Below, one piece after another: positions 41,020 to 63,544 of a stretch of 64,000 nucleotides of DNA. A program made the translations under genes and the position numbers. Source of the DNA: Alphaproteobacteria bacterium (GTDB lineage Bacteria > Pseudomonadota > Alphaproteobacteria > CAAGCB01 > CAG-977); NCBI GenBank assembly GCA_017616015.1, contig JAFZYY010000018.1, positions 125-64,124 on the forward strand, read 5' to 3'. The notes beneath the pieces are model-generated. The model was not told the DNA's origin. It made no database searches and saw only the letters and a program-made list of their open reading frames with translations. Within the stretch, counting starts at the first letter, position 1. Every line of letters starts with the position of its first letter.

Positions 41020-41052
41020 TGGTCATGTTTTGACGCTTGACCGTGTTAATCT
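41020..41052 (+). promoter_or_regulatory. island operator copy plus -10 (TGGTCATGTTTTGACGC, 10 nt, TAATCT)
   Basis: Core GTCA-N5-TGAC with the same 10-nt offset to a -10-like hexamer as the other copies. It points rightwards into a gene-free stretch. Confidence 0.55.
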
Positions 41053-41058
41053 TTTAAA

Positions 41059-41193
41059 CAATCGGCCACCGGAGGATTTTTCCCCTTGGCGACCGGGAGT
41101 TCACAAACCGCACAAACACGGCATGATGCTTTTGGCAATATGCCTGGACATAACATCATCTCCCGGTCTTATAGATCGGGAGATTTTGTTTTT
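41059..41193 (+). ncRNA. candidate ~135-nt small RNA (operator-controlled promoter to intrinsic terminator)
   Basis: The predicted start is about 7 nt after the -10 at 41047-41052. It ends at the hairpin ATCTCCCG-gtcttatagat-CGGGAGAT (41158-41184) plus TTTGTTTTT. No credible ORF lies in the interval. Confidence 0.35.
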
Positions 41194-41382
41194 GGTAACG
41201 ATGCGGCATCTCTTAACCGCACCGGTTTGTGCAAGGAATTGTGAAGTCCCCGTCCGAAATAAAAACCGGACGGAAACAGTATGGCAGATAAAACCAATCG
41301 TTACAAACGAAAGTTTAATTCTGCATCGCTCTCTGGATCGCCACACCCGCTAAAGCGGGTTCGCGATGACGACCTTTTATGG

Positions 41383-42390
41383 TTATTTCCACCGTTCCTT
41401 TTCGGCTTTCTTAACGCGTTGCCAGAAATCGGCGGGCTGGACGACTTCGACTTGTTTTCCCCACGTCGCCAGATGCCAAGCCATTTCCAACGTGCCACCT
41501 GCGCGGAATTTCACAGTCAGAGTGCCATCTTCGTTTTTGATCGTTTCCTGTCCGGGGTGGAAAATGAAGTTTTCCGCTTCGGGCGCGGCTTTCGCGGTGA
41601 ATTTCCATTCGACGTCGTACGGTTCTTCGCGGTACACACCGAAAGAATCTTTTACATACTCGTTCATATCGAAACCAATACCCTTGAAATCGCCTGTTGT
41701 TACGATGGCTGAGCGAATGTTCGACAAGAGGAATTGATGAATCTCGTTGCCGGCAAAACCGTCCCAGTGGCGCGCCAGCAGATACTGCGCTCGATCGCTG
41801 TATAAAATGCCATACGGTTCAACTGCGCCTTCACTGATTTTACCGCTTCTTTTATTGAAGTATTCGATATTGAGGACTTTCTTTTCCTGTATGGCCTGAC
41901 GGATCGTTTTAACGATTTCAGGGTCGATTTTTGTTCTTATTCCCGGACGGAAAACGTTTCCTTCCGAAAAATCAAAATTGTTTAATTCTTGCTCTTTATT
42001 TCCGAGAGCCCGAACAATCTGAGCGCGGAGTTTCGTCAGGCGATCGCTGTCCGTATCCCTGTTTTGTTGCTTCATCAGATTGGCAAGATTATTCAGAAGC
42101 AACAAATCTTCGTCATCTATTTCTAAGAATTGCGGAAGCTTTTGCCCGCCGAGAATTGTCCATTTTTTCTTTCCGCCCTCTGAGACTTCTTTCAAACCAT
42201 TGGCATACACTTCCTGAAAGCACCCGATTAAGCGATCCGCCGTCCGTTTTGAACATTTCATGATTTGGCAGATTTCGTCTTTTGTCAAAGCCCGACCGAA
42301 CATATTGACCGCCAAATCCAAAACTCTGGTAAAACGGGCGTAAGTTCCTTGTTCCGCCTTATCTCTTTTATCTTCTTTTTTTCTCATCAT
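41383..42390 (-). CDS. HTH-WYL-WCX transcriptional regulator (BrxR/CapW-like), copy 1
   Basis: N-terminal wHTH, WYL core (IEYFNKRSGKISEGAVEPYGILYSDRAQYLLA) and a C-terminus collinear with copy 2 (TLEMAWHLATWGKQVEVVQPADFWQRV). I set the start at MMRKK (42390/42387) behind AAGGAG. Confidence 0.8.
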   Translation of the reverse strand: MMRKKEDKRDKAEQGTYARFTRVLDLAVNMFGRALTKDEICQIMKCSKRTADRLIGCFQEVYANGLKEVSEGGKKKWTILGGQKLPQFLEIDDEDLLLLNNLANLMKQQNRDTDSDRLTKLRAQIVRALGNKEQELNNFDFSEGNVFRPGIRTKIDPEIVKTIRQAIQEKKVLNIEYFNKRSGKISEGAVEPYGILYSDRAQYLLARHWDGFAGNEIHQFLLSNIRSAIVTTGDFKGIGFDMNEYVKDSFGVYREEPYDVEWKFTAKAAPEAENFIFHPGQETIKNEDGTLTVKFRAGGTLEMAWHLATWGKQVEVVQPADFWQRVKKAEKERWK

Positions 42391-42462
42391 CGGCTCCTTT
42401 GGTTTTCGTCTATATGAACGGTTGTTGAAATATATCATACTCAATACCCTTTCAGACCGCAA

Positions 42463-43305
42463 TCAGGCTTTGTTCATCAGGAAACGAAGCGTTTCAATTT
42501 GGTGGTCTATTCTTCTGTCAATCATTTCCGAAGGCGGCTGTTTTTGCAATTCTCTGATCTGGTCAATGATAAAACCGAATAAAACTTCATATTTACCCGT
42601 CATTTTAGCCCCTTTATCAACCAGATAGAGGAAAATGTCCTTATCCTTATACAAAGCGTAATTCAAGGCCGAATAATCGCATTTGTCAGTTATGTTTACG
42701 TCACCGCCCAAGTCTTCAATCAACCAACGCAAAACAGAAAAAGAACCATACTCCGCCGCCAGAGGAATCAGCGCGTCGACCGGATCGTTTACATCAAAAA
42801 CAACCCCGTACCGTTGTGCCCATTTCATAAAGCCCAGATTTTTTGTGTGGACACAGGCACGCGCCAAAGAATGCCCCTGATCGTCGCAAACGGACAAATC
42901 CGCCTTGCCGTCTTCAACAAGTGTCAAAAACGACCGCCTGCATTCATGAAAGCAAGCCATCATCAACGGAGAAATCCTTTTGGGGAAAGTATCAAAATCC
43001 GTATTGATGTCGGCTTTTATGTTCCGTGCGGCACGGAGAAACGCTTTGAGTGTTTTCGCATGGTTCGTTAAAACAGCGTGATGAAAAGCGACCCTCCGTA
43101 ATTCCTGCGGCAAAGCGGCAAATCCGCTTTCGATCGCCCATGCTTCGCGATGGCAGACTTTTTCGAAAAATCGGGTTTTAAAATAAATCTCGAGATCGTC
43201 GAAAAAATAATCTTCCAGTTTTTTTTCCAGCATAAAACGATCCATGTTTACGCTTTCAGAAACTTCTGCATCGTCATCATCTGTTTGATTGAATAGGTCA
43301 AACAT
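42463..43305 (-). CDS. ankyrin-repeat protein with unrecognised N-domain 'Y' (copy 2)
   Basis: N-domain W.IESGFAALPQELRRVAFHHAVL is shared with 43328-44179, followed by ANK repeats (SPLMMAC..., GHSLARAC..., ...). Start at MFDLF (43305) by alignment with the paralogue. Confidence 0.7.
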   Translation of the reverse strand: MFDLFNQTDDDDAEVSESVNMDRFMLEKKLEDYFFDDLEIYFKTRFFEKVCHREAWAIESGFAALPQELRRVAFHHAVLTNHAKTLKAFLRAARNIKADINTDFDTFPKRISPLMMACFHECRRSFLTLVEDGKADLSVCDDQGHSLARACVHTKNLGFMKWAQRYGVVFDVNDPVDALIPLAAEYGSFSVLRWLIEDLGGDVNITDKCDYSALNYALYKDKDIFLYLVDKGAKMTGKYEVLFGFIIDQIRELQKQPPSEMIDRRIDHQIETLRFLMNKA

Positions 43306-43327
43306 CTTCAAAGCGTCCTTTCTGCCG

Positions 43328-44179: not shown

Positions 44180-44213
44180 GGCTTATTCTCCTCTTTTGAT
44201 GTTCAATAAAGGT

Positions 44214-44246
44214 ATTATAGTCTGTTAGTGCGTCAGAACCTGACGC
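44214..44246 (-). promoter_or_regulatory. island operator plus -10 (GCGTCAGGTTCTGACGC, 10 nt, TATAAT)
   Basis: Perfect 7+7 palindrome GCGTCAG-N3-CTGACGC at 44230-44246. TATAAT (minus strand) is at 44219-44214, about 35 nt before ATG 44179. Confidence 0.7.
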
Positions 44247-44249
44247 TTA

Positions 44250-46385: not shown

Positions 46386-46452
46386 TAAAATCCTCCCTTT
46401 AGTTGATGATTAACGTGCGCAACAAGCAGAGCCAAATCCGCACGATTCGTGT

Positions 46453-47727
46453 TTAATATACAGCAGGGGTGCGACGAAATCTGACGTATCTGTAAGAGGG
46501 TCGCTTATAAACTTGATGTGGGAACCTTCTTTTTTCCTTTGCGACGAACAGATCGCCGAAATCTTCCAAAAACGGCAGATAATCCTTTTCACAAATGCAC
46601 GCGGGATCGACACCGAAAAGTTCCGCCAGTTTTTTGCTTAAATAAGAACAGTATTCCTCTACGGTTTCTTTCGGATGATTGATCCGAAGCAAAACGTCGG
46701 ACCCGACAGTCTGTTTCGAGGGAAACAAACACTCGGTTAAAAAACGGCACAACGCCCTGATTTGATCGGTTGGAATCATCGAGGGATTCACCTTTATTTG
46801 CGGTAAAAGAAAAAAATCGTTTGCCCGACGGGACAAAGACAAGAATTCTCCGACGGGTCTTGTTTCCAATACCGAAACAAATTCCGATTTTTCATCGCTC
46901 AATTCGTCTTGTTTGTCTTTCATCAGCCGTTCGAATATCCGAAGCGCTTTTTCTTTCGGATATTTCGTCTGAAAATACAAATCGTTGAGCGTATGAACCA
47001 AACCGGAAAAATCCGTTTTTTCCAATCGAAAAGATGAGAAAACAGGAAATCGCAAAACCCTCAAACACGATTTTCCTTTTATAAAACGGAACACGTTTTT
47101 ATCAAGGAATTCCAGTCGCCGGCAAACTTTTTCTATGGCATCCCTGTTGTAATACGAATATGAACCGCTCCATTTTCCGTTATCGTTTTTGACAAACCAA
47201 ACGTTATTTTCCGCCGAGTCGTCTTCCTCTTCAATCAAATAACGGTTCTCCAGAAAACCGCATTTTTCCAAAATCGGGATCACTTTTTCGCCGAATTCCT
47301 GCGACGTTACCGTACTGCCTTTCCAATGTACCATAATCAGTCCGGCTTTACGGGCTTCTTTCTGAAAGACATCATCATGATCTCTTTTGGTCAAAGCATG
47401 AATGATTTCGTGCACGATTGTGTTTGCCAAATCTATTCCGTCATATTTCCGTCGCCAGTCTATCAGAATTTGATTATCTTCCAGATCACATTCCCCAAGA
47501 CGAAAACTCAAATTTGAAAAATCGATACTGAACATCATTTTTTTATCAGGGAAAAAGGTTTCGACAAGCCCCGACACCAGCGTTTTGAACCACGGTGTTT
47601 TTGTTGTTTGGAAAATGATTGTGCTTTTGGCGACAGTAAGCTTTTCCACTTTTTTAGGTTTGGGAAGTTTCCTCCACTTTAACGAATGCAGATTGTTCAA
47701 GGTGATATTTTCCGCTTTTTTCGTCAT
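46453..47727 (-). CDS. SprT/SPRTN-type zinc-metalloprotease-motif protein, 'S' copy 1
   Basis: HEIIHALTKRDHDDVF fits HExxH-x(n)-H..F of SprT-like proteases. The N-terminus LTVAKSTIIFQTTKTPWFKTLVSGLVETFFPDK is shared with 48800-50062. Confidence 0.6.
   Translation of the reverse strand: MTKKAENITLNNLHSLKWRKLPKPKKVEKLTVAKSTIIFQTTKTPWFKTLVSGLVETFFPDKKMMFSIDFSNLSFRLGECDLEDNQILIDWRRKYDGIDLANTIVHEIIHALTKRDHDDVFQKEARKAGLIMVHWKGSTVTSQEFGEKVIPILEKCGFLENRYLIEEEDDSAENNVWFVKNDNGKWSGSYSYYNRDAIEKVCRRLEFLDKNVFRFIKGKSCLRVLRFPVFSSFRLEKTDFSGLVHTLNDLYFQTKYPKEKALRIFERLMKDKQDELSDEKSEFVSVLETRPVGEFLSLSRRANDFFLLPQIKVNPSMIPTDQIRALCRFLTECLFPSKQTVGSDVLLRINHPKETVEEYCSYLSKKLAELFGVDPACICEKDYLPFLEDFGDLFVAKEKRRFPHQVYKRPSYRYVRFRRTPAVY
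46455..46487 (-). promoter_or_regulatory. degenerate operator copy plus -10 (ACGTCAGATTTCGTCGC, 10 nt, TATATT) inside the 3' end of the upstream CDS
   Basis: The left half-site is perfect and the right half is CGTCGC. The 10-nt offset to TATATT is kept. It lies about 70 nt upstream of ATG 46385. Confidence 0.35.
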
Positions 47728-47767
47728 AAGAAGTTCCTTTCAAAAATATGTTTTGATTGTAAGAACC

Positions 47768-47800
47768 ATTAAACCATACGGAAGCGTCAAAAGCTGACGC
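47768..47800 (-). promoter_or_regulatory. island operator plus -10 (GCGTCAGCTTTTGACGC, 10 nt, TTTAAT)
   Basis: The motif at 47784-47800 fills the gap between stop 47802 and ATG 47727. Confidence 0.65.
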
Positions 47801-47801
47801 T

Positions 47802-51375: not shown

Positions 51376-51408
51376 ACTGTAACGGAGTGATGCGTCAGAC
51401 CCTGACGT
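51376..51408 (-). promoter_or_regulatory. island operator plus -10 (ACGTCAGGGTCTGACGC, 10 nt, TACAGT)
   Basis: Motif at 51392-51408, about 65 nt upstream of ATG 51326. Confidence 0.65.
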
Positions 51409-51540: not shown

Positions 51541-52089
51541 ATGAAAAAAGAAACGAAAAGACCTTTGAGTAAGAAAAAACAACTTAAAGAGGATTTTTTA
51601 TCCGCGCTTGAAAATGCTTTTGGAGACGTTCTGACTGAATATAAATTTCCCTGGCTTGTTCTAAAAGGTATTTCTGAAATGGATGTTCCGGAACAAAAAA
51701 TTTATAACGCGCTGGTGTCCATGCGCGGTTTTAAAGATTTTTACCGTATAGGAACATCTCTGCGTTGCGATTACGTTCTGCCGCGTCAAAAAATCATTGT
51801 CGAATTTGACGAACGTCAGCATTTCACCCTACAACGGGCGAAATCCTTTGAATTTTATCCCGATGATACAACTGTTTTCTTTGATAAGAAAATATGGAGC
51901 GAGCGTTGTTACAATTTAAAGGCGTATGACAATGATCCCCCATATCGAGATGAACAAAGGGCGTTTTTTGATTCTTTGCGAGACATCCGTTCTTTCAAAA
52001 ACGGATTTAAACTTATCAGGTTTTACGAAAAAGACCTGACATCTTCTGAAGAAATTGAGAAATCCGTTCAAAAAATAAAGGAGCTTTAA
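51541..52089 (+). CDS. hypothetical protein with DUF559/Vsr-like (PD-(D/E)xK-type) motif
   Basis: CDYVLPRQKIIVEFDERQHF resembles the D...(I/V)ExDxxxH core of DUF559/Vsr-fold endonucleases. AAGGAG RBS. Confidence 0.4.
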   Translation: MKKETKRPLSKKKQLKEDFLSALENAFGDVLTEYKFPWLVLKGISEMDVPEQKIYNALVSMRGFKDFYRIGTSLRCDYVLPRQKIIVEFDERQHFTLQRAKSFEFYPDDTTVFFDKKIWSERCYNLKAYDNDPPYRDEQRAFFDSLRDIRSFKNGFKLIRFYEKDLTSSEEIEKSVQKIKEL

Positions 52090-52090
52090 A

Positions 52091-52999: not shown

Positions 53000-53035
53000 A
53001 TCTTCCGATGCTTTAAAGTGTCGGAAGATTTTTTA
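53000..53035 (+). terminator. intrinsic terminator of the 51541-52975 operon
   Basis: ATCTTCCGA-12 nt-TCGGAAGAT followed by TTTTTT. Confidence 0.7.
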
Positions 53036-53052: not shown

Positions 53053-53085
53053 ACGTCAGGTTTTGACGCTTTCGTATCGTATAGT
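53053..53085 (+). promoter_or_regulatory. island operator plus -10 (ACGTCAGGTTTTGACGC, 10 nt, TATAGT)
   Basis: About 70 nt upstream of ATG 53156. Confidence 0.65.
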
Positions 53086-53155
53086 GAATACGAATCGTGC
53101 GGATTTGGCTTCGCTTGTTGCGCACGTTAATCAAACAACTAAAGAGAGGTTTCTT

Positions 53156-53905
53156 ATGTCTTATCCCGTTATTGTGAACATTCCCCACGCGTCCGTCGAA
53201 ATCCCGGACTTTGACGATTACGTTTTATCCCCCGACGCCGTTCGTCGGGAAGCGCGATTGCTTGCCGACCTTTACACAGACGAACTGATTGACGATGCGG
53301 AAAACGTCGAACGCGTCGTCGCTCCGGTTTCCCGCGTGTATGTCGATACGGAACGCTTTGCCGACGACGACAAAGAGGAAGCCGCCCGTTACGGTATGGG
53401 CGTTCTTTACACTAAAACGCACGACGGCGTTTATCTGCGTCAGCCTGTTTCCGAAGAACGGCGGTCGGAATTGCTGAAAAAGTGGTATAAACCACATCAC
53501 GCCCGTTTGACACACTTGGTTGATACGGCTTTAAGCACAGAGGGAAAAGCCCTCATCATAGACCTGCACAGTTATCCGACACGCTTTGATATGCTTGGCA
53601 TCAAAGGCAAATACACGCCCGATATTTGTATCGGTTGCGACGCGATCCACGGCGACATAACGGTTTTGGAAACGTTGGTGAACTGGTGTTACGAAAACAA
53701 ATACACCTGCGCGATCAACAATCCTTTTTCGGGTTCCGTCGTTCCCCTGAAACACTACGAAAAAAACAAAACCGTCACGTCCTTTATGCTCGAAATCCGC
53801 CGAAGCCTTTATATGAACGAGGAAGCCTTTGAAAAGACGGCAAGCTTTTTCACACTGAAAAACGCCCTTGCCGGACTGATAAGAAAAATATCGAGCAAAG
53901 ATTGA
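53156..53905 (+). CDS. N-formylglutamate amidohydrolase (FGase, PF05013-like) family protein
   Basis: VNIPHASVEIP, DLYTDEL, SRVYVDTER and ALIIDLHSYP follow the FGase-family motif order. Start at ATG 53156 behind AAAGAGAGG. Confidence 0.6.
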   Translation: MSYPVIVNIPHASVEIPDFDDYVLSPDAVRREARLLADLYTDELIDDAENVERVVAPVSRVYVDTERFADDDKEEAARYGMGVLYTKTHDGVYLRQPVSEERRSELLKKWYKPHHARLTHLVDTALSTEGKALIIDLHSYPTRFDMLGIKGKYTPDICIGCDAIHGDITVLETLVNWCYENKYTCAINNPFSGSVVPLKHYEKNKTVTSFMLEIRRSLYMNEEAFEKTASFFTLKNALAGLIRKISSKD

Positions 53906-53921: not shown

Positions 53922-54941
53922 TTAATCAGTCGGAGAAGACGGATCGAGTCCGTTGAACCTGTTCTGAGCTTCTTCGGCGCGCTGCCAGAAATCGGCGGGC
54001 TTAATCACTTCAACGCTGTCGCCCCATGTTTTTAAATGCCAAGCCATTTCTAAGATACCGCTTGTTTTCATTTTGACTGTCAAAGAACCGTCAGGATTTT
54101 TAATCATCTTTTGTGACGGGTGGAAAGAAAAGCGACCGGCTTCCCGTGCGATTTCTTTTTTAAACCGCCATTCAAAGTTTATCGGTTTACCGTGAAATGC
54201 ACCGAAAGATTCGGCAGCATACTCTTTCAGATTAAAATCGGGATCGATTTCAAAAACTTCATTTAAGATTTCAATATTGCTTATAGACGTTAAAATGAAG
54301 CTGCGGATTTCGCCTTTGTCATTTTTTGCAATCAGATAATGATTGCGTTCACCATATAAAAAGCCATAAGGACAAACAACGCGGGAAGAAAACTTCCCCT
54401 GTTTTTCATAGTCAAAACGCACTTTCTGACATTTCAAAAGGGCTTCACGCAGTTTAAGCAAAAGACTTTGATCGATAAGCAGTTTCGGACCAGGGCGGGA
54501 GGCAAACCCTTCACTTTTAATCAGCTCTTCGGCATCAACGTCAAGCCTCATTTTTTCTTTGGACGGGATCAGATTTTTGATTTTATTCACCAGATGTTTT
54601 AACGTCTTGGCCTTATCGTTCAGCTTTTGCTTTTCAAGTGCATCAACAGCCAAATCAAGCGTAGCCAGCTCATCACTGGAAATGCCTATCAAACGGTTCA
54701 ATGCGCCGGAAGAAGTAAGCCGCCAACGTTTTATCCGTGTTTGTGTCGGGACCTCTTCAAGATCAAGAAAAAAAATTCTTTCCAAAGCGTCGCGCATACG
54801 TTCGGCCGTACGGCGTTTGCAGTCATACTTTTGCATGATGTCGTTTAAAGATACCCCTTCCGCACTTTGTTGCATATCCAGGGCTAAATCAAACAAATCA
54901 AGCAATTTTCCGTAGATTAAATCCTGTTGTTTTTTAGGCAT
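53922..54941 (-). CDS. HTH-WYL-WCX transcriptional regulator (BrxR/CapW-like), copy 2
   Basis: WYL core RFDYEKQGKFSSRVVCPYGFLYGERNHYLIA and C-terminus ILEMAWHLKTWGDSVEVIKPADFWQRA. The alternative start at 54959 lies inside the operator. Confidence 0.8.
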   Translation of the reverse strand: MPKKQQDLIYGKLLDLFDLALDMQQSAEGVSLNDIMQKYDCKRRTAERMRDALERIFFLDLEEVPTQTRIKRWRLTSSGALNRLIGISSDELATLDLAVDALEKQKLNDKAKTLKHLVNKIKNLIPSKEKMRLDVDAEELIKSEGFASRPGPKLLIDQSLLLKLREALLKCQKVRFDYEKQGKFSSRVVCPYGFLYGERNHYLIAKNDKGEIRSFILTSISNIEILNEVFEIDPDFNLKEYAAESFGAFHGKPINFEWRFKKEIAREAGRFSFHPSQKMIKNPDGSLTVKMKTSGILEMAWHLKTWGDSVEVIKPADFWQRAEEAQNRFNGLDPSSPTD

Positions 54942-54958: not shown

Positions 54959-54991
54959 TACGTCATAAATTGACATGCTTAAAAAGTATAA
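54959..54991 (+). promoter_or_regulatory. island operator plus -10 (ACGTCATAAATTGACAT, 10 nt, TATAAT) in the divergent WYL-2 / 55025 intergenic region
   Basis: The motif abuts or overlaps the 5' end of the WYL-2 gene and faces the 55025 operon. Confidence 0.65.
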
Positions 54992-55024
54992 TAAAATAAA
55001 ACTTTCTGTCAACGGGAGGAAAAG

Positions 55025-55360
55025 ATGGCGTATCTAACGGCAATTTATTGGTTTAACGGCGATGAAATCATCATGTTTAAAAAAGAAGTCGAACCCGATT
55101 ACAGAGGTATGGCGATTTACCCCGAACAGCACGTTGACAAGTGGCAAGAAGTCATTAAAGACAGACCTGAGCTTGCCGATAAAAAGTATAATGAAATCCC
55201 GCGCGGACGTATGAGTTATTTTGCGGGAACGGAGAACGTTTACAACATCGCCGTCGGTAAAAAGGTATTGGAAAATAAAACTCTTATGTCCGCATTGCTT
55301 AAGAAATTGGAATTGCCGGCAGGCGCGGACATTGTTTTTGAAGAAGCGGCTTATTATTAG
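55025..55360 (+). CDS. hypothetical protein (111 aa)
   Basis: ORF with a plausible RBS. No motif recognised. Confidence 0.45.
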   Translation: MAYLTAIYWFNGDEIIMFKKEVEPDYRGMAIYPEQHVDKWQEVIKDRPELADKKYNEIPRGRMSYFAGTENVYNIAVGKKVLENKTLMSALLKKLELPAGADIVFEEAAYY

Positions 55361-55401: not shown

Positions 55402-56313
55402 ATGAAAAATACAGATGAACAGTCTTTTTATGAACGATCTAAAGAATACGCCATAGAGAAGTTGGCAAAAGAACATTATATAGATAAGGAAAAGTGCTCG
55501 CCAGAAGAGGCTAAGGAAAAAGCCAAACAAAGAATCGAGGCTTTAATCAAGCCTGCGGTCATTTATGATATCAGACATTCTGAAACAACATTAGAAGGAA
55601 TTTATAAACGGTTGTTGATAAGTTGTCAAAACAGACAACAAATGCCGAACGTCATTAAATTTAATAAAAATGAAAAAGAATTTTCTGACATTCTGAAAAG
55701 CTTTAATCCTTTTGAAGTTTCAAAAGAAACTGAAGAAAAATTGTATGTGAAATTTACATCAATTCCAAAATTTAATGTTAACACGCGTCATCATAAGAAT
55801 TGGGAAAATTTTGCCAAATCTGTTCTTGATAGTGCAAAGTTTGTCAGCAGATTTAAAAAGGTTGAAGACTTCAAAAAAATGATAGAAAATTTAGATGCCC
55901 ATTTCCAAGGAAGCCTTGTTCTACCCAGATTGATAAGCGGAGAAATTCGAGGCATAGGACTTGCATTAGCCTGCGATTTTCTCAAAGAAATAGGTTATGT
56001 CGAGTATCCGAAACCAGACGTTCATATTAAAGATATTATCGGACAACTTTTTTTCAAAAAAACAAAAAATGATAAGCCGATAACGGACGAGGAAGCCATT
56101 TTTAAAGTTCGGGAAATCGCTAATAACGCAAACGTAAGCGCTTTTGCGGTTGATAAAATTTTATGGTTGATCGGTTCCGGAAAATATTATGGCGTTAATG
56201 GAATAGAGGGGGATATCGAAATATCCGCTGACAGACAAGAATTTATAAATGAAATAAAAAAAGAATCCCCTTTTTATCTTTATACGTCACGAATTGACGC
56301 ATTTGTCCTGTAA
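55402..56313 (+). CDS. hypothetical protein with helix-hairpin-helix (HhH-GPD-like) motif, a candidate DNA glycosylase fold
   Basis: LISGEIRGIGLALACDFLKEIGYVEYPKPDVHIKDII parallels EndoIII-type L.GVG.KTA...L......P...VDTHI.R, i.e. an HhH followed by Asp about 20 residues later. Confidence 0.35.
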   Translation: MKNTDEQSFYERSKEYAIEKLAKEHYIDKEKCSPEEAKEKAKQRIEALIKPAVIYDIRHSETTLEGIYKRLLISCQNRQQMPNVIKFNKNEKEFSDILKSFNPFEVSKETEEKLYVKFTSIPKFNVNTRHHKNWENFAKSVLDSAKFVSRFKKVEDFKKMIENLDAHFQGSLVLPRLISGEIRGIGLALACDFLKEIGYVEYPKPDVHIKDIIGQLFFKKTKNDKPITDEEAIFKVREIANNANVSAFAVDKILWLIGSGKYYGVNGIEGDIEISADRQEFINEIKKESPFYLYTSRIDAFVL

Positions 56314-56316
56314 GAT
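56284..56316 (+). promoter_or_regulatory. island operator plus -10 (ACGTCACGAATTGACGC, 10 nt, TAAGAT) embedded in the last codons of 55402-56313
   Basis: Same core and offset as the other copies. Confidence 0.55.
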
Positions 56317-56341
56317 AAAACCATAACGTTCAAAAGAACAG

Positions 56342-56404
56342 GTGCCGGAGGGTTTTTCTCCTTTCGTTTGTTGTTTGTTTACCATTCCCTCCGGCACTTT
56401 TTTT
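56342..56404 (+). terminator. strong hairpin plus T7, acting as operon terminator and/or leader attenuator
   Basis: GTGCCGGAGGG (56342-56352) pairs with CCCTCCGGCAC (56387-56397) across a 34-nt loop, followed by TTTTTTT. Confidence 0.6.
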
Positions 56405-56421: not shown

Positions 56422-56763
56422 ATGAAAGACGAGGAAATCATCAACACGATTGCCGCTGAATGCACGCACGGGACACGTTTGGACTTTTGTCCTTTTGTTG
56501 AAAACTAAAACGACAGTTATTGCGATAATCCTAAATGGCGATGCGACCGTATCCTTCCTAAGAACTTCGTGTTTCCGATTGCCGAGTTGGAAACTGATCA
56601 GATGACAGCACCGATGTTGGAAGCCGTCTTTAAAAAGGTAAATATCTTTTTGGGAAAACGCGCGCGGTATCTTTTGGCGACTATGGTCGAGCTTCAGATT
56701 CCTTTTTCAGTAAATATTTTCCACCACGGATTTAGCATAACGGTTGCGGAAACGATGGATTAA
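56422..56763 (+). pseudogene. 113-codon Cys-rich ORF split by one in-frame TAA (56506-56508)
   Basis: MKDEEIINTIAAECTHGTRLDFCPFVEN-stop-NDSYCDNPKWRCDRILPKNFVFPIAELETDQ... is all one frame. The stop sits in the middle of a four-Cys pattern. An AAAGGA RBS precedes ATG 56422. Confidence 0.4.
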
Positions 56764-56830
56764 AAGAACGTGTGTAACGGAAAAAAATATGCAAGAATAC
56801 CCCAAAACGGATATGAACGGAGAACCTTCG

Positions 56831-59800
56831 ATGAAAAAAGATAAAAAAGAAATTTCGTTAAATGCTCAACAGAAAAAGGTCGTCGAAAATATTGACGGCT
56901 CGTATTTGGTTTTGGCAGGTCCAGGAACGGGAAAAACGACAACTCTTGGCGCCCGTGTCAAATACATGATTGAAAAAGGGATTGAAGCTGAAAAAATTTT
57001 GTGTCTGACTTTTTCGGACGCAGCCGCAAACGAAATGAAAAAGACATTTGATGAAACAATCGGGCGCGCCGCCATCGGGATTGACGTTTTCACGTATCAC
57101 GGTTTTTGCAGTTATTTGATTCAAAACAATGCCGACGTGTTTGAAATGCCGGAAAATATCGGTGTTGTTTCTGCCGCCATGTCGCGCGCTTTTATTGAAG
57201 AATGTATCGAAGAAATCGAACCTGAAGCGTATGTCACGGAAAAAGGCGATTCATACTACTTTATTGATACAATTCTTGAACAGATCGGGGAAATCAAATC
57301 TCACCGTCTGACGAAAAAGGAATACTTTGACAATCTGAAAAGGAATGTCGAATGGGAACCGCTGTTGGAAGAATTAAAAGAAAAGCTTGCCGCTAAAAAC
57401 AAAAAAGGGAAAACAGATACCAAAACATTAAAAGGCAACATTAAAAAGCTGGAGAAAAAAATCGCCAAGGCCAAAGAACTTTGGGAATTTTACGAAAAGT
57501 ATCAGGAAAAGCTTTCGGTCAACAATTACATGGATTTCAACGATATGATTTCTTTGGTGTTGGATCGGTTTGAAGCGGACGCGGCTTTTCTGGATCAGGC
57601 GGCGAACAAATACGAATACATTTTGGTGGATGAATATCAGGATACGAACACAAACCAGAACGAAATCGTTTTTAAACTGACCGAAGCTTTGAAAACGCAA
57701 AACGTGACAGTTGTCGGCGATGACGACCAGATCATTTATTCATTTCAGGGGGCGCATCTGGACACGATTGAAAACTTTTTGAAAAAGTTTCCGAAGACAC
57801 AAGTCATTTGTCTGACCGAAAATCACCGTTCGACACAGCAAATTCTTGATTTGTCCTATAAAGTCGCTGATCAGGATAAAGCCCGTCTGGTCAACAACCC
57901 GTTTTTCAAAAAGTATAAAATCACAAAAAGACTGAGTGCGGCAAACAAAGACGTAAAAAAATGCAAAGAACTTGTTCATTGCACAAAATATGCGGATCCT
58001 TTGCAGGAGTATAATGCGATCGTCGACATGATCGTGCAAAAGTCTTTTGAAGGAACTTCTTTCAGCAATATTGCCGTTTTGGCAAAAACAAACGAGGAAT
58101 TGGCTGTTTTCGCCGAACTGTTGGAAAATCGGGCTATTCCGTATGAATTAAAGAACGGCAAACCGATTTTTTCCATTCCGGCCGTGAATGTCCTTTGGGA
58201 TTATATACAGGCTTTGGTCAATCCCGATTTATACGGGGATCGTCTGCTGAAATTCATTTTAAGCGAGCCTTTTCAGATTGACGCAAGCGACTATGTGGAA
58301 CTTTGCGAAGATTATTCAAAAAGCGGAAACGCAATCAAATCGTTAAAGTTTTTAGTCAAAGGCGCGGAAAAGAGAAAAACCCCGTTGAAAGATTTGCCGA
58401 AGTTGAAAAAGCTTTTAGAAGATTACGATTATTTGCAAAAATACAGAACGAATTGCGGTATAAAAAGAACAATTCAGGAGATTTTGGCACGAACGAAGCT
58501 TTACGCTTATTATTTGGAAACGGACGTTAACAAAATCGACAATATCGCCGGTATAGCAAAGCTGATTGAAGAAGCCGCCGATTATTCCGCCGTTCATCGT
58601 TCCTGTCGTTTGGACGCATTTGTTGAATACATCAACAAAACGATTGATGACGGCATTTCGATTTTAACGGACAAAGCCCCGGTTAAAAGAGATGCCGTGC
58701 AACTGTCAACGTATTATTCAGCCAAAGGGCGTGAATACGATATTGTTTTTATGCCGACGTTGATTTCCGATAAATGGGAAAGCGCGAAAGATTACGCGCC
58801 GCAGGTTCCTTTACCGCCTGACGACTGCATGGATGCGGACGAAGCAAAAGAAAAGCGGAAAGAGCTGAAAATATCTGACGCGGTTAAAGTAATGTATGTC
58901 GGTATGACCCGTGCACGGCGTGAATTGTATTTGTCCTTTGTCGATACGGTAAAAAACAAAGCGAAAAAGCCGACCAAATTTATCGCGGATTTTCTTGATG
59001 ATGAAAATGTCCGCTTTGAAATGGCACCCGCTTATACGGAAGAGAGCTATGCGGAAGGCGAAAGAAAGCTGATCGAACAAAGACCGTATGACTATGAGGC
59101 AGATTTTAAGGCTTTGATTGACGGTTATTTTAAAGATCATAAATTTTCCATTTCTGATATCAACGATTATAACTCTTGCCCCAGACAGTATCTGTATTCG
59201 AATATTTTGGAATTGTCCGGCAAAGATGGCAACCCGGACGCGCTTTCCTTCGGTTCCGCCGTTCATAAGGCTCTGGAAAAAGCGGTCGATTATGCCAGGG
59301 AAAATCATGTTTGGTGTACAGAAGACGAGTTGGTCGCCTACTTTAAATCGGCGTTGAAGCATTATCCGACACAGTCGGTTTCCACACGTCGGACTTTGGA
59401 AAAGCGGGGAGAAAAAGCGTTGCTGGCGTATTACGATATTTTGACCGAAACAAAGCCCGCCGCACTTAAAGAAACGGAGTTGATGATTGAATTCAACGAA
59501 AGTTTTCCGTTTATCGGCTTTATCGATCGTATCGATAAAAACAACGGCGGCACTGTAACGATTTACGATTACAAAACCGGAAATGCCAAAGAAGATATTT
59601 CTCCCGACGGCGAACACGCGGATTATTATATGCAGATGTGCGTCTATAAATACGTTTATGAAAAAACAACGGGAAAGAAAGTACGGGAAACGACTTTTGT
59701 TTTCGTGGAAGAACCGGATAAAAACGTTACATTGAATTTGACGGATAAAGACTGCGAGGACGCGTGGAAGGCGTTTAAAAACAGCGTCAAAGAAATGAAG

Positions 59801-59884
59801 AAAGGACATTTTGAACCGACTGAAGATGAAACGGCGTGCCAATACTGTTCGTTAAGCGAATTCTGCCATAGGAACAGAGTGTAA
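56831..59884 (+). CDS. UvrD/PcrA-type SF1 helicase fused to a C-terminal Cas4/AddB-type PD-(D/E)xK Fe-S nuclease
   Basis: LN.QQ..VV....G..LVLAGPGTGKTT (Walker A), ILVDEYQDTN and VGDDDQ.IY.FQGA. The C-terminus has NSCPRQY...IDRID...IYDYKTG...YMQMCVY...CQYCSLSEFC (one plus three Cys). Start at ATG 56831 behind GGAGAA. 56789 is also possible. Confidence 0.8.
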   Translation: MKKDKKEISLNAQQKKVVENIDGSYLVLAGPGTGKTTTLGARVKYMIEKGIEAEKILCLTFSDAAANEMKKTFDETIGRAAIGIDVFTYHGFCSYLIQNNADVFEMPENIGVVSAAMSRAFIEECIEEIEPEAYVTEKGDSYYFIDTILEQIGEIKSHRLTKKEYFDNLKRNVEWEPLLEELKEKLAAKNKKGKTDTKTLKGNIKKLEKKIAKAKELWEFYEKYQEKLSVNNYMDFNDMISLVLDRFEADAAFLDQAANKYEYILVDEYQDTNTNQNEIVFKLTEALKTQNVTVVGDDDQIIYSFQGAHLDTIENFLKKFPKTQVICLTENHRSTQQILDLSYKVADQDKARLVNNPFFKKYKITKRLSAANKDVKKCKELVHCTKYADPLQEYNAIVDMIVQKSFEGTSFSNIAVLAKTNEELAVFAELLENRAIPYELKNGKPIFSIPAVNVLWDYIQALVNPDLYGDRLLKFILSEPFQIDASDYVELCEDYSKSGNAIKSLKFLVKGAEKRKTPLKDLPKLKKLLEDYDYLQKYRTNCGIKRTIQEILARTKLYAYYLETDVNKIDNIAGIAKLIEEAADYSAVHRSCRLDAFVEYINKTIDDGISILTDKAPVKRDAVQLSTYYSAKGREYDIVFMPTLISDKWESAKDYAPQVPLPPDDCMDADEAKEKRKELKISDAVKVMYVGMTRARRELYLSFVDTVKNKAKKPTKFIADFLDDENVRFEMAPAYTEESYAEGERKLIEQRPYDYEADFKALIDGYFKDHKFSISDINDYNSCPRQYLYSNILELSGKDGNPDALSFGSAVHKALEKAVDYARENHVWCTEDELVAYFKSALKHYPTQSVSTRRTLEKRGEKALLAYYDILTETKPAALKETELMIEFNESFPFIGFIDRIDKNNGGTVTIYDYKTGNAKEDISPDGEHADYYMQMCVYKYVYEKTTGKKVRETTFVFVEEPDKNVTLNLTDKDCEDAWKAFKNSVKEMKKGHFEPTEDETACQYCSLSEFCHRNRV

Positions 59885-59919
59885 CTTTCGTTTTAAAAGC
59901 AGCGGACATTCAGAAAAAA

Positions 59920-59947
59920 GGGGAAGTTCGGGAGATCGGACTTCCCC
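59920..59947 (+). terminator. hairpin after the helicase-nuclease gene
   Basis: GGGGAAGT-12 nt-ACTTCCCC followed by a T-rich stretch. Confidence 0.5.
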
Positions 59948-59955
59948 TGATTTGT

Positions 59956-59988
59956 ATGTCATATTTTGACGTATTTGAGAGCTACCAT
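59956..59988 (+). promoter_or_regulatory. island operator plus -10 (ATGTCATATTTTGACGT, 10 nt, TACCAT)
   Basis: About 35 nt upstream of ATG 60021. Confidence 0.6.
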
Positions 59989-60020
59989 TATTTCAGAGCA
60001 ATGGAAAAAGGAATAATGAG

Positions 60021-62018
60021 ATGTCAGAATACTTTGAAAAACATAAAATGATGGAATACGTTTCAAATCTTTTAAGTCACAAGGCTTTCGTCGCCCGTAA
60101 CCTTAAAGACATTTATTCATGGATAGAAGACCATGCCGACGAGTTTTGCACTGATAGCAATCATTCTCCTAAAAACAAAAAAGAGAACGGAGAAATCGGC
60201 AAAACGGAAAAAATCAGGCAAATCGGAGTTTTTGCACTTCATTTGCAAAACAGCCGCTTTTTCAGGAAAAAGTACGCACCGGATTGTTTGGAAAAGAATC
60301 TGTCGCTCCTGCAAAAAATCTTCCATCTGTCAAAAGAGGAAACGGAATTCCTGTCTTTCAGGACAAGATTGGAATGTTCCAACCGTTTTTCAAGAACACT
60401 GTCGGATCTGGTTGATGAACATTCGCCGGCAGACGACCTTTCAATCGCTTTAAGTATCGGAAAAGCTGCGCTGAATTCGATCATTTGCCCCGATAATCGA
60501 TTGTTTCAGTTGGGATTCTTGGAAAAAAGCTATCGGGGAAGGCCGGACCCGACAGCTCTGATGACTTCTTTTTATTTCCAACCGTTCAAAGGCATTGACG
60601 ATATCAAAAGTTTTTTAATCGGGAAAAGTTTGTCAGCGACTCTTTTACCGGAAGATTTCAAACATATTTCTCAGAAGCAAGACGCTGCTATGATCTTGAG
60701 CGCTGCGTTAAAAAAGCGGGAAAAAGGGATCAATTTTCTGTTTTACGGTTGTCCCGGAACGGGGAAAACGGAATTTGCCAAAATGTTGGCACAGCAAGTA
60801 TCTGCTTCTTTGTATTCTATCGGTGAACCCGAAAACACCAATGATGATGACTATGACGAGCGTTATGAAAAACTGCTCCGAAACAGAATCTTATTAAAAA
60901 AGGAAAAAAACGCCGTTTTTTTAATAGACGAAGCCGACGATCTTTTGGAATGTTACAAAAGTGACAAACTTAAAATCAATCGCCTTCTGGAAAACAATCC
61001 TCAACCGACAATTTGGATTTTAAACAACACGAAATATATGGATAAAGCGTATTTGCGCCGCTTTACATACGCCATTCACTTTAAAACACCCGATCAGGAG
61101 GCTCTGACGGACATATGGCAAAAGAATCTGGAAAAAAATCATTTACCTGCCACAAATGAGATTTCCGCTTCTTTTGCAAAAAAATATTCCGTTCCGCCCT
61201 CTTTCGTTGAAACGGCTGTGAAATCCGCAAAGCTTGTCAACGGCGGATTGGAAAAAGTCGGACAAATGTTGGACATTTTGCAGGAAGCTTATGATAACGG
61301 TAAAAAAGCTCCTCAAAAACGAGAACCGGAAGCTGCAACCGCGTTTAATCCCGATCTGTTGAATACGGATATTGATTTGAAACTGCTGACAAACCGATTG
61401 ATTGGTTTGAAAAAGCTGAACTTTTCATTGTGTCTGTATGGCGTTTCCGGCACGGGAAAATCGTCTTATGCCCGTTATCTGGGCGATGCATTGCAAATTC
61501 CCGTCCTCAAGAAACGCTGTTCCGACTTAATCAGCATGTATGTCGGACAAACGGAGGAAAATATCGCCGACGCCTTTATGGAAGCTTCGGCAAAAGGAGC
61601 TTTATTGGTTTTTGACGAAGCCGACAGCTTTTTACAGGACAGGGAAAGCGCGGTACGGAGTTGGGAAATCACACAGGTCAATGAAATGCTGACTCAAATG
61701 GAAAGCAATCCTTTGCCGTTTGTCTGTACGACGAATTTAATGGACAAACTGGATAAAGCTTCTTTGCGCCGCTTTACGTTTAAAGTCAGGTATGACTATA
61801 TGACCGCGGATCAAAGCCGATTAGCTTTCGAACATTTTTTCGGTATCAAAAATGCGCCGTTAAGCCACCTGTCCTCTCTTTCCCCCGGGGATTTCGAGGT
61901 GGTTCGGAAAAAAGCCGAAATTCTCGGAATGCTGAACGATAAAGATGCTTTGGTCAAAATGTTGGAAGACGAGCAGAAAAACAAAGCTCCCGTTCATCAT
62001 AAAATCGGTTTTATTTAG
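60021..62018 (+). CDS. protein with an unknown ~230-aa N-domain and two AAA+ ATPase modules
   Basis: Module 1 has GCPGTGKT and VFLIDEADDL. Module 2 has GVSGTGKS, YVGQTEENI...F and LLVFDEADSF, plus TTN and LRRF (classical-clade AAA features). Confidence 0.8.
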   Translation: MSEYFEKHKMMEYVSNLLSHKAFVARNLKDIYSWIEDHADEFCTDSNHSPKNKKENGEIGKTEKIRQIGVFALHLQNSRFFRKKYAPDCLEKNLSLLQKIFHLSKEETEFLSFRTRLECSNRFSRTLSDLVDEHSPADDLSIALSIGKAALNSIICPDNRLFQLGFLEKSYRGRPDPTALMTSFYFQPFKGIDDIKSFLIGKSLSATLLPEDFKHISQKQDAAMILSAALKKREKGINFLFYGCPGTGKTEFAKMLAQQVSASLYSIGEPENTNDDDYDERYEKLLRNRILLKKEKNAVFLIDEADDLLECYKSDKLKINRLLENNPQPTIWILNNTKYMDKAYLRRFTYAIHFKTPDQEALTDIWQKNLEKNHLPATNEISASFAKKYSVPPSFVETAVKSAKLVNGGLEKVGQMLDILQEAYDNGKKAPQKREPEAATAFNPDLLNTDIDLKLLTNRLIGLKKLNFSLCLYGVSGTGKSSYARYLGDALQIPVLKKRCSDLISMYVGQTEENIADAFMEASAKGALLVFDEADSFLQDRESAVRSWEITQVNEMLTQMESNPLPFVCTTNLMDKLDKASLRRFTFKVRYDYMTADQSRLAFEHFFGIKNAPLSHLSSLSPGDFEVVRKKAEILGMLNDKDALVKMLEDEQKNKAPVHHKIGFI

Positions 62019-62031
62019 GGATGCTCCGCCG

Positions 62032-62892
62032 ATGAAAAAAGAAACTGCAACAGTGCGAGAAAAAAAATCGTTCGGTGGTTCTTTTATCATACGGCGTTTT
62101 CTGAAAGTCGTTTGGGAATACGGGTCGGTTTGGGTGTGGCTATTCAGGGATTTTATCCGTCTGCATTTATCAAAAGGTTATGATTGGCAGATTGAAATTG
62201 AAATCAAGACGGGCAAGCATTGGTGGATTTATGGAAACATTGATTTTGCCGGATTTGAAAAAAGCTGCTCTTTCAACTTATGTAGTCACCGGACGTGTCC
62301 TTTTGGTATAGGACTGCATTTATTCGGACTGAATCTAAACTTTCATTGGGGAGACGGAAGACATGACGGTTATGACGAACACCTTGACAAATACTATGAT
62401 TATGAACCGCTGGCAGACGCTCACCCCGATTGGGATTTTCAGAAACTGGACGCGCTGATCCCGTATAGTGTCCGGAAACCGGAAGTTTTCAAAGAATATT
62501 ATGTATCCCGTAGAATTCACGTTTACTCCAACGATACGGCGAATAACAAACACGCCCTTGCAGTTGAATTAGCATTACCGTTTCTGCGCTATATGAAAAT
62601 CTCGTTTAAAAGACCGTGGGGATATGCCGAATGGTTTGGAATTGATTTTTTTGCACATCATGCGATCGGTATTGTGTTTTCTTTGTTTAAACACGATTTG
62701 AAAATCGTTTTTGCGAAAAACAGTCTTGACCGTTCCTCCAATCTGTCAACCGAAAAGGCGTTAGATCGCTTTCTGACTTTGAACGGCAATCGCAAAATTC
62801 CGCTTGAAGAAATCAGATGGGCTTATAGTTCGAACAAAGAAGCTTGTCGCCTGTTTTTCAAAAAAATCAGGGAAAGGAAGAAACGAGACTGA
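62032..62892 (+). CDS. hypothetical protein (286 aa), Trp/His/aromatic-rich
   Basis: Starts 13 nt after the AAA+ stop. No motif recognised. The 61945 start would overlap the AAA+ gene. Confidence 0.45.
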   Translation: MKKETATVREKKSFGGSFIIRRFLKVVWEYGSVWVWLFRDFIRLHLSKGYDWQIEIEIKTGKHWWIYGNIDFAGFEKSCSFNLCSHRTCPFGIGLHLFGLNLNFHWGDGRHDGYDEHLDKYYDYEPLADAHPDWDFQKLDALIPYSVRKPEVFKEYYVSRRIHVYSNDTANNKHALAVELALPFLRYMKISFKRPWGYAEWFGIDFFAHHAIGIVFSLFKHDLKIVFAKNSLDRSSNLSTEKALDRFLTLNGNRKIPLEEIRWAYSSNKEACRLFFKKIRERKKRD

Positions 62893-62969
62893 ATCAGCTT
62901 TGATTTTTTTAAAGTGTCGTATATTTGTAAATGGAAATGTCGTCTATTTGTAAAAAAAGGAATTGCAAA

Positions 62970-63380
62970 ATGAAGCGTAAAACCCTTAAAAACCGTATGC
63001 TTCTTCGTATTAAAAAGAGCAATAAAACGGCTTTTATCTCCTCGGACTTCTTTGACTTGTCCGATAAGGATCAGGTCGGGCGCGTTTTGCGTTCTTTGGT
63101 TAAAGAGAAAACCCTTATCAAATTGGGACGCGGCATATTTGCAAAGACAAAACAATCACTTTTAGGCGACAAGAAAATTCTGGCAAAAGATTTCCCGACC
63201 GTCGCCCGTGAAGCGTTGGAAAAGTTGAAAATCAGAACGTTTCCGACAAAAGCGGAGCTGGATTATAATTCCGGTTTATCAACGCAGATTCCGACCGGTC
63301 TGATGGTCGCCGTCAATAAACGCGTTGCCAGAACGATTACATACAACGGAAGAAGCATTAAATATGAACAGACCGCCTAA
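62970..63380 (+). CDS. AbiEi-family (DUF6088-like) type IV antitoxin-domain protein
   Basis: N-terminus L.RIKKS...FISSDFFDL.....V.R.L..LVKE..LI.LGRGIFAK matches my recollection of AbiEi/DUF6088 wHTH proteins. Its stop overlaps the start of an AbiEii-like stub. Confidence 0.5.
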   Translation: MKRKTLKNRMLLRIKKSNKTAFISSDFFDLSDKDQVGRVLRSLVKEKTLIKLGRGIFAKTKQSLLGDKKILAKDFPTVAREALEKLKIRTFPTKAELDYNSGLSTQIPTGLMVAVNKRVARTITYNGRSIKYEQTA

Positions 63381-63441
63381 AGAACTGATTGAAGAAATCG
63401 CGCAGGAATTATCAGTCAATCCGTCTTTTTGCTTAAGATAG
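63364..63441 (+). pseudogene. 25-codon stub resembling the N-terminus of an AbiEii nucleotidyltransferase toxin
   Basis: MNRPPKELIEEIAQELSVNPSFCLR-stop. The ATG overlaps the antitoxin 3' end, which is typical TA coupling. The reading frame ends where AbiEii proteins normally continue (..P.F.EKD..). Confidence 0.35.
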
Positions 63442-63470
63442 AAAAACCTTTTTTTCTTTATTTTTTGTAG

Positions 63471-63544
63471 TCTCTTTGAAGGTATGTCAGATTTTGACGT
63501 ACCCAAGTGTTATTTTGTTTTTAATGGTTCAATCTCTTTGAAGG
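63471..63544 (+). repeat. 12-bp direct repeat TCTCTTTGAAGG (63471-63482 and 63533-63544) bracketing the last operator/-10 cassette
   Basis: Exact duplicate. The second copy carries the RBS-like GAAGGGA of the downstream ankyrin gene. Confidence 0.7.
63484..63516 (+). promoter_or_regulatory. island operator plus -10 (ATGTCAGATTTTGACGT, 10 nt, TATTTT)
   Basis: About 40 nt upstream of ATG 63554. Confidence 0.6.

Follow-up and report, generated by a model that had tools for sequence, protein, structure and literature searches.

Which factor acts on a 17-bp palindrome that stands repeatedly before a -10-like hexamer, and does it repress or activate? The question is raised by a 64-kb stretch of contig JAFZYY010000018.1 (assembly GCA_017616015.1) from an alphaproteobacterium, referred to below as the window. 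A first-pass annotation, made from the letters alone, had counted nine such copies with the core GTCA-N5-TGAC, described their arrangement as a repressor-type layout and suggested that it had not been reported before. Our analysis leads to a different answer, which we consider likely: the palindromes would form a DriD-type set of -35-less, activator-dependent promoters, in which the 17-mer would be the operator of WYL factors of the DriD family.

A palindrome in constant register with the -10 hexamer

The core of the palindrome (GTCA-N5-TGAC, GTCANNNNNTGAC) is found ten times without mismatch in the window, whereas dinucleotide-preserving shuffles predict 0.51 copies and not one of 100 produced ten, so that the motif is indeed far commoner than chance. 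Nine of the ten lie at 41-64 kb; these are the copies, with their hexamers, that the first-pass annotation had listed, correctly apart from one slip (the copy listed at 54959 has its first base at 54960). The remaining match (23597-23609) is located inside recN, 220 nt before ligA, and is taken as a chance occurrence because it lacks a -10 and scores below 12 bits with the full matrix described next.

A position weight matrix (PWM), as the annotation had proposed, was built from the nine sites together with their -10 hexamers and used to scan the whole window with a cut-off of 12 bits. Exactly ten sites exceeded the cut-off, all of them within 41-64 kb, so that the ~37 kb of backbone has none. 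The additional site (46471-46487, ACGTCAGATTTCGTCGC, followed after 10 nt by TATATT) is located 5' of a gene for a 711-aa ankyrin protein. It is one of two copies (the other being 39708-39724) that had been set aside as degenerate, with the left half only; in fact, both are full consensus boxes, because GTCG is an allowed right half. The ten promoters (box, spacer and -10 hexamer) and the orphan box are:

41020-41052 (+): promoter 1, box TGGTCATGTTTTGACGC, 10 nt, TAATCT, extended -10 TG
44214-44246 (-): promoter 2, box GCGTCAGGTTCTGACGC, 10 nt, TATAAT
46455-46487 (-): promoter 3 (the tenth site), box ACGTCAGATTTCGTCGC, 10 nt, TATATT
47768-47800 (-): promoter 4, box GCGTCAGCTTTTGACGC, 10 nt, TTTAAT, extended -10 TG
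51376-51408 (-): promoter 5, box ACGTCAGGGTCTGACGC, 10 nt, TACAGT
53053-53085 (+): promoter 6, box ACGTCAGGTTTTGACGC, 10 nt, TATAGT, directly after a terminator (53000-53029)
54960-54992 (+): promoter 7, box ACGTCATAAATTGACAT, 10 nt, TATAAT
56284-56316 (+): promoter 8, box ACGTCACGAATTGACGC, 10 nt, TAAGAT, within the last codons of the HhH gene
59956-59988 (+): promoter 9, box ATGTCATATTTTGACGT, 10 nt, TACCAT, after a terminator (59919-59948)
63484-63516 (+): promoter 10, box ATGTCAGATTTTGACGT, 10 nt, TATTTT, extended -10 TG
39708-39724 (-): orphan eleventh box, CGACAAAACGTGACG / ACGTCACGTTTTGTCGC, core CGAC-N7-GACG plus an extended CA/TG palindrome

The gap between the 17-mer and the hexamer is exactly 10 nt in 10 out of 10 promoters, as had been stated for every copy, and the hexamer has the form TAnnnT in nine of them; the exception (TTTAAT at 47786) is preceded by an extended -10 TG. 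All ten sites are intergenic or fall within the last codons of the preceding gene, and a ribosome-binding site and gene start follow 30-105 nt downstream of each except site 41022, which faces a conserved non-coding element and not a gene. The earlier statement on placement is thus upheld, while its corollary that every copy points at the next gene holds for all but this one site.

With the hexamer read as the -10, the box spans ~-39 to -23 relative to the predicted start. The match to TTGACA at 16-18 nt spacing is at most 2/6 in all ten promoters (mean 1.6 vs 2.4 at random positions). The 10-nt spacers and the outer flanks vary among the sites, while the positions of box and hexamer stay constant, and unrelated genes carry the box. 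The window consensus can be written as tATACGTCA-N5-TGACGc (that is, CGTC-N7-GACG; tATACGTCAgnttTTGACGc), with the spacer T-rich beside the promoter-proximal half and A-rich on the distal side, an oriented asymmetry that the annotation had correctly observed.

Overall, a shared cis-element in a fixed -10 register supports the proposal that at least ten transcription units are tied into one regulon. Moreover, the regulon extends past the window, since a further box with its -10 (TGACAGCTTCTGTCG, 11 nt, TATGAT) was found at L098 14147-14161 (minus); this site, on the same contig family and ~3.1 kb outside the window, stands before a gene for a 359-aa protein.

The palindrome corresponds to the DriD box

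The published consensus for DriD, a regulator from Caulobacter crescentus, is ATACGAC-N7-GTCGTAT, with the general form XC1G2X3C4-N7-G12X13C14G15X, in which X3 is usually T and the centre is AT-rich; in DriD, Arg37 recognizes G2, Arg41 the G opposite C4, and Glu40 makes contact with C1 (PMC10853764). The 17-mer of the window is this published box. Seven promoter boxes and the orphan box fit the consensus exactly, and four promoter boxes fit it with one mismatch at C1 or G15; their centres are rich in A and T, with T prevailing on the proximal side. The site native to didA (ATACGTCCGTTTCTGGCGCA; PMC9186387) opens like the window consensus (ATACGTCA).

The promoter anatomy agrees as well. In the cryo-electron microscopy analysis of DriD with RNA polymerase at three promoters, the box overlaps the place of a -35, its distance from the -10 being constant, and DriD activates (PMC13004042). 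When the didA and CCNA_03891 promoter oligonucleotides are aligned on their boxes, CAAGGT and CAATCT appear 11 nt after G15, as in the window. The oriented asymmetry of the spacer fits the asymmetric seating of DriD on DNA.

Two DriD-type regulators encoded among the boxes

Two WYL proteins are encoded in the region, one of them behind a promoter of its own:

53922-54941 (-): WYL2, 339 aa, DriD homologue, wHTH-3HB-WYL-WCX
41383-42462 (-): WYL1, 359 aa from the first start (334 aa as called), DriD-family paralogue
54985-55012 (-): WYL2's own promoter, TTGACA, 16 nt, TATACT, sigma-70-type with 11/12 matches

The two proteins are 33% identical, and their genes are 11 kb apart and unfused. Pfam detects WYL and WCX domains in both. 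When all solved structures were searched, the best match of both proteins over their full length was Caulobacter DriD (8tp8/8tpk and the DriD-RNA polymerase entries 9pfq/9pfv/9pga; E = 9e-45 for WYL2 and 2.5e-23 for WYL1), with chain 8tp8 aligning to residues 10-316 of WYL2 and 41-344 of WYL1. At E <= 0.01 this search returned DriD-type entries only and no PafBC structure for either protein, and PADLOC returned generic WYL models only. The recognition helix of WYL2 (RRTAERMRD) is identical to that of DriD, with R44/E47/R48 corresponding to DriD R37/E40/R41. WYL1 has R73/D76/R77 at these positions, so that both base-reading arginines are kept and Glu40 is replaced by Asp; its recognition-helix substitutions relative to DriD are R36K, E40D and R43I. 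The suggestion that these two proteins are the obvious regulators is supported, both being DriD homologues with the DNA-reading arginines.

The box nearest to the WYL2 start reproduces two published features. A box-to-start-codon distance of ~17 nt was reported for 68 DriD homologues (PMC10853764), and in the bidirectional driD/CCNA_03891 region of Caulobacter DriD activates the divergent operon but not itself. In the window, a box ends 18 nt before the start codon of WYL2 (54941), and its -10 faces the divergent operon encoding the 111-aa and HhH proteins. Only WYL2's own promoter is complete; it puts the box at ~+2 to +18 of the WYL2 transcript, so that some negative autoregulation of WYL2 is possible. 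WYL1 lacks the box-before-own-start arrangement and is the last gene of the promoter 2 operon, and would therefore be induced by the system itself.

The register is conserved in related loci

We compared 80 loci encoding WYL2 homologues at 39-51% identity; most of them belong to uncultured Alphaproteobacteria of gut and rumen, the others to Bradyrhizobium, Mailhella, Nitrospirae and further groups. The pattern CG[AT]C-N7-G[AT]CG followed by TAnnnT at offset 11 occurs in 59 cases, as compared with 1-14 at the other offsets between 5 and 19; with one mismatch allowed, the peak at offset 11 is 57 vs 12-27 elsewhere. The offset seen in the window is thus kept in its relatives. The logo of the related sites reads ATACGWCA..TGWCGTA, and the spacer asymmetry recurs in the 59 sites.

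By far the commonest gene directly behind the box promoters encodes a full-length orthologue of the AAA+ ATPase of the window (32 out of 80 loci, 34-53% identity). Its start codon is ~15-30 nt past the predicted transcription start, and a DriD homologue is usually immediately next. The pairing of the AAA+ gene with the DriD box is the best candidate for a conserved regulon core. Box, AAA+ and WYL genes recur together as a conserved module in the relatives (L003-L082; e.g. L032 7823-10951), the corresponding part of the window being 59956-62018. Several DriD paralogues per genome are common; for example, L015/L031, L049/L052 and L033/L070 are pairs that each come from one metagenome-assembled genome.

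Activation versus alternative explanations

The layout as first described implies that the WYL proteins act as repressors, occupying the palindrome over the -35 region and blocking RNA polymerase until a signal arrives, as CapW and BrxR do. We regard this as improbable, even though the box does overlap the core promoter and at WYL2's own promoter falls just past the predicted start, which is a repressing position. Repressors of the WYL type that sense single-stranded DNA (ssDNA) and are located beside defence genes exist (PMC11662680, PMC9122601), and defence-like genes are present in the island (SoFic-like Fic, AbiEi, GajB-like helicase and IetA-like AAA+). However, with at most two of six -35 positions matched the ten promoters offer nothing to mask, and RNA polymerase should transcribe them only weakly by itself when a -35 is missing. 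A register that is exact to the base, as seen here and at the 59 related sites relative to the -10, would be needless for a repressor and argues for an activator touching RNA polymerase. Both proteins match DriD, with only DriD-type structures retrieved at the threshold given above and only generic models in PADLOC, and DriD bound at the same geometry activates (PMC13004042). Given the DriD box, the DriD homologues, the missing -35 and the activation geometry, the repressor-type label is not supported. Nor is the arrangement undescribed, as the same architecture has been published for the Caulobacter DriD promoters.

A quite improbable variant keeps the operator but reassigns its reader: the box would be bound by a factor encoded elsewhere, such as a chromosomal DriD orthologue, while the WYL proteins of the island target other sites or have a modulating role. 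Related genomes often do have several DriD paralogues, only ~72 kb of this genome is covered, and the recognition helix of WYL1 carries the three substitutions listed above. On the other hand, the helix of WYL2 is identical to that of DriD, the box 18 nt before the WYL2 start is the signature arrangement of the family, and all detected boxes cluster around the two WYL genes, with none in 37 kb of backbone.

Finally, it is highly improbable that the repeats are mere passengers of duplicated promoter-leader-gene cassettes, or promoters of an alternative sigma factor, and not sites for a dimer: the paralogue pairs (ANK415/ANK711, ANK283/ANK293 and SprT420/SprT424), the leaders that promoters 3 and 6 share at 92% identity over 60 nt and the resemblance of the proximal half TTGACG to a -35 are in favor of it, but the spacers and flanks differ where the box and hexamer positions are kept, the box precedes genes as unrelated as those for the FGase, helicase, AAA+ and HhH proteins, distant genomes have it at an identical offset, TTGACG, only 11 nt from the -10, is too near to serve as a -35, and the two-fold symmetry argues for a dimer. 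Two specific assignments were tried and rejected, namely TTGACG as a -35 (11 nt from the -10, with no consistent -10 16-18 nt on, except at 54962) and an alternative sigma promoter (in view of the two-fold symmetry of the site and the adjacent gene for a dimeric regulator that matches it).

Several points weigh against activation by DriD-type regulators. The activator role is deduced from homology and promoter anatomy, and the equal box-to-(-10) spacing in Caulobacter is read from oligonucleotide sequences alone. The ssDNA-contact residues of DriD are only partly kept: Y168 and Y192 are found in both proteins and R178 and R204 in WYL2 only, and R207, R288 and W206 are substituted. Hence the effector may not be that of DriD, especially for WYL1. 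On its strand, promoter 7 can also be read as an ordinary promoter (TTGACA, 16 nt, TAAAAT); a terminator-like hairpin is located directly behind promoter 8; and no TAnnnT follows the box at 39708-39724 at the distance kept elsewhere. Some of the sites are copies by descent, as is evident from the paralogous genes and one shared leader, so that the ten sites are not ten independent inventions.

A proposed mechanism of induction

In the DriD-type reading that we prefer, a regulator dimer would bind CGTC-N7-GACG via its two winged-helix domains, with arginines reading G2 and the G paired to C4. The likely binders would be WYL2 (53922-54941) and WYL1 (41383-42462). With no usable -35 and the box at ~-39 to -23, the housekeeping sigma-70 holoenzyme would need the bound regulator, and would fire only when the latter provides contacts to RNA polymerase, as it does in the structures of Caulobacter DriD with the polymerase. 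By analogy with DriD, the WYL domain would bind ssDNA arising from DNA damage and thereby switch DNA binding on; induction by ssDNA or DNA damage is probably the relevant signal, and attack by phage or foreign DNA might perhaps also act as a trigger. This would induce the ten units of the window, and one or more outside it, in concert. WYL2 would have a canonical promoter to itself, pointing away from a box-driven operon as that of driD does in Caulobacter, and WYL1, at the end of a box-driven operon, would add a feed-forward step. We infer the binding of WYL1 and WYL2 to the boxes, the activation and the signal alike.

Comparison with known WYL systems

The closest known system is DriD itself, an SOS-independent DNA-damage activator of Caulobacter with the wHTH-WYL-WCX architecture. 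The window shares with it the full-length homology, with base-reading residues identical or conservative, the same box logic (ATACG[T/A]C-N7-G[A/T]CGTAT with an AT-rich centre), the -35-overlapping box at a fixed -10 distance with no -35 (the equality of the distance in Caulobacter coming from oligonucleotides only), and a box ~17-18 nt before the regulator start that faces a divergent activated operon (WYL2). The differences concern the setting more than the logic. The host of the window is an uncultured gut-type alphaproteobacterium; two paralogous regulators are present in one locus; ten or eleven sites fall within 23 kb of a strain-specific region, whereas those of DriD are scattered over the chromosome; the -10 is TAnnnT and not of the Caulobacter type; and the ssDNA-contact residues are partly kept. 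In place of didA, bapE, recJ and dnaG, which are absent, the window has ankyrin, SprT-like, AAA+, helicase-nuclease, HhH and FGase genes and an RNA. What is new here is the density of sites, the two paralogous regulators, the cargo and the conserved structured RNA behind one site.

PafBC of mycobacteria, which acts at the RecA-NDp promoter, is likewise a WYL activator of the DNA-damage response that works on -35-less promoters by way of an element located 5' of the -10. In RecA-NDp the motif reads TGTC-N12-TAnnnT, and its TGTC falls where the window has TGAC. Unlike the window, with its two-fold symmetric site and unfused WYL genes, PafBC is a heterodimer or a fusion, recognizes a single asymmetric element and operates by sigma adaptation. 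PafBC does not bind its site alone, and the proteins of the window are closer to DriD.

DdaA of Acinetobacter and Moraxellaceae is similar in that one WYL activator switches on damage-response and anti-phage genes under DNA damage (PMC12392091, PMC13010146). Its network is genome-wide and replaces SOS, whereas that of the window is island-centred. CapW and BrxR (from CBASS, BREX and defence islands) share the wHTH-WYL-WCX architecture, the proximity to defence genes and the promoter palindromes, and CapW senses ssDNA. They repress otherwise functional promoters, whereas the promoters of the window are -35-less and in base-exact register with the -10.

Genes behind the promoters

Promoter 1 is predicted to drive the structured element at 41088-41254 (see below) and is 21 nt upstream of a divergent 190-aa gene (start 40999). 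Behind promoter 2 are two ankyrin genes (283 aa, 44179-43328, and 293 aa, 43344-42463) followed by WYL1 (42462-41383), and behind promoter 3 a single ankyrin gene (711 aa, 46385-44250). Promoter 4 precedes a gene for a SprT-like protein (424 aa, 47727-46453) with a HEIIH motif. The unit of promoter 5 consists of genes for an ankyrin protein (415 aa, 51326-50079), a second SprT-like protein (420 aa, HEIIH, 50062-48800) and a 323-aa protein (48773-47802), and that of promoter 6 of a gene for a 249-aa FGase-family protein (53156-53905). The ankyrin and SprT-like genes include the paralogue pairs named above.

The 5' untranslated regions of promoters 3 (46390-46455, minus) and 6 (53086-53150, plus) are those with the 92% identity over 60 nt, although the genes behind them differ (ankyrin vs FGase). 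This shared leader has a hairpin (CGTGCG..CGCACG), part of it is carried by promoter 5, and from its sequence it looks like a copied promoter-leader cassette.

Promoter 7 serves genes for a 111-aa protein (55025-55360) and a 303-aa HhH/Ogg-like protein (55402-56313). The unit of promoter 8 comprises a 113-aa open reading frame (56422-56763) and a gene for a UvrD/PD-(D/E)XK helicase-nuclease of 1031 aa (56789-59884). Between promoter 8 and its genes, ~20 nt past the predicted transcription start, there is a 13-bp GC-rich hairpin followed by T7 (56340-56404). It could serve as an attenuator, terminate transcription of the preceding HhH gene or mark where a short RNA ends. A nonsense polymorphism at 56506 (TAA in the window vs GAA in contig L001) cuts the 113-aa reading frame to 28 codons.

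Promoter 9 precedes genes for a two-module Cdc48-like AAA+ ATPase (665 aa, 60021-62018), a 286-aa protein (62032-62892) and an AbiEi/DUF6088 protein (136 aa, 62970-63380). The latter has no AbiEii partner in the window; on contig L101 (537-1824) an identical AbiEi is followed by AbiEii. Promoter 10 stands before a gene for a 342-aa ankyrin protein (63554 to past the window end). The cluster also includes two plus-strand genes (51541-52975) that lack a box.

The orphan box at 39708-39724 is located upstream of a small open reading frame and of a SoFic-like Fic gene (39344-38247), 364 nt from the latter, and its role is uncertain. The Fic/DOC protein (38247-39344) is a full-length match to the SoFic defence model (E = 8.6e-44). 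For the cargo names, PADLOC and NCBIfam gave no equivalog-level match, the best being SoFic-like, AbiEi, and partial GajB-like and IetA-like matches. A search of the literature for links between WYL, SprT and ankyrin found nothing relevant.

A conserved structured element behind promoter 1

No credible or conserved open reading frame was found behind promoter 1, and the sole thing downstream of it is a structured element, which in other genomes is accompanied by a small recombinase gene:

41088-41254 (strand not assigned): structured element, ~165 nt
L083 5984-6583, L011 8169-8765, L049 2901-3494 and L031 4016-4597: gene for a 199-aa tyrosine recombinase

The element occurs behind DriD boxes in three other loci at 71-84% DNA identity (L011 9091-9252, L039 6318-6476 and L049 3702-3876), and also in seven metagenome contigs without the box (among L083-L090). 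It has a multi-branched fold, with 11 covarying pairs in the four-sequence alignment. When the other 77 DriD loci were scanned with a covariance model, no additional copy came up, and Rfam returned nothing for the window at its gathering thresholds. The evidence on its strand is divided. Promoter 1 and the downstream recombinase favor plus; the alifold energy, a terminator-like end and a sub-threshold Rfam match to sRNA-Xcc1 (32 bits, E = 4e-4) favor minus; and the shared helices show no G-U vs A-C preference between the strands. The recombinase gene is located 200-320 nt downstream of the element in L011, L049, L083-L085 and L087-L090. It is absent from the window and from L039, and L031 has the gene with no detected element. 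The association between the structured RNA and a small recombinase may merit separate study.

Genomic context of the variable region

The backbone of the window carries recN, ligA, queA and a gene for an outer-membrane beta-barrel protein; the closest named LigA relatives (89% identity) are from uncultured Alphaproteobacteria. The description of the regulon as island-wide is borne out to the extent that the region is strain-specific: DNA homology to the relative L094 (8911-9223) stops at ~37316 of the window, just after the outer-membrane protein gene, which puts the left edge of the variable region at 37240-37316. Past this breakpoint L094 has ptsN-hpf-rpoN-lptB, and a flanking ATP-grasp protein is 92% identical. 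The GC content changes from ~0.50 to ~0.41 at 36 kb. A tRNA scan found no tRNA in the window, and no integrase turned up among the genes scanned, the right end being outside the window. A plasmid or phage origin was considered and rejected, as there was no megablast match. With no integrase, tRNA, phage or plasmid match, mobility is unproven, and the term island is justified in the sense of a variable region and not of a proven mobile element.

Implications for the DriD family

The locus reveals no new regulatory principle. The window provides a clean sequence-only case of the DriD promoter grammar outside Caulobacter, and this grammar, with its box at -39 to -23, its missing -35 and its oriented AT asymmetry, is shared by many uncultured Alphaproteobacteria and by some other phyla. 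A further, unlikely extension is that a DriD-type sensor pair drives a strain-specific arsenal in which the Cdc48-like AAA+ unfoldase, the SprT-like zinc proteases and the ankyrin adaptors would form a bacterial counterpart of the eukaryotic SPRTN/Wss1-p97 route for DNA-crosslinked proteins, or a proteolytic defence triggered by damage or phage. If this were true, the helicase-nuclease and HhH genes and the structured RNA would be co-induced with it, and the pairing of the AAA+ gene with the DriD box would mark a widespread and undescribed branch of the non-SOS damage response. Overall, the analysis provides candidate members of a non-SOS damage regulon for gut-type Alphaproteobacteria, including the AAA+ partner and the SprT-like proteases.

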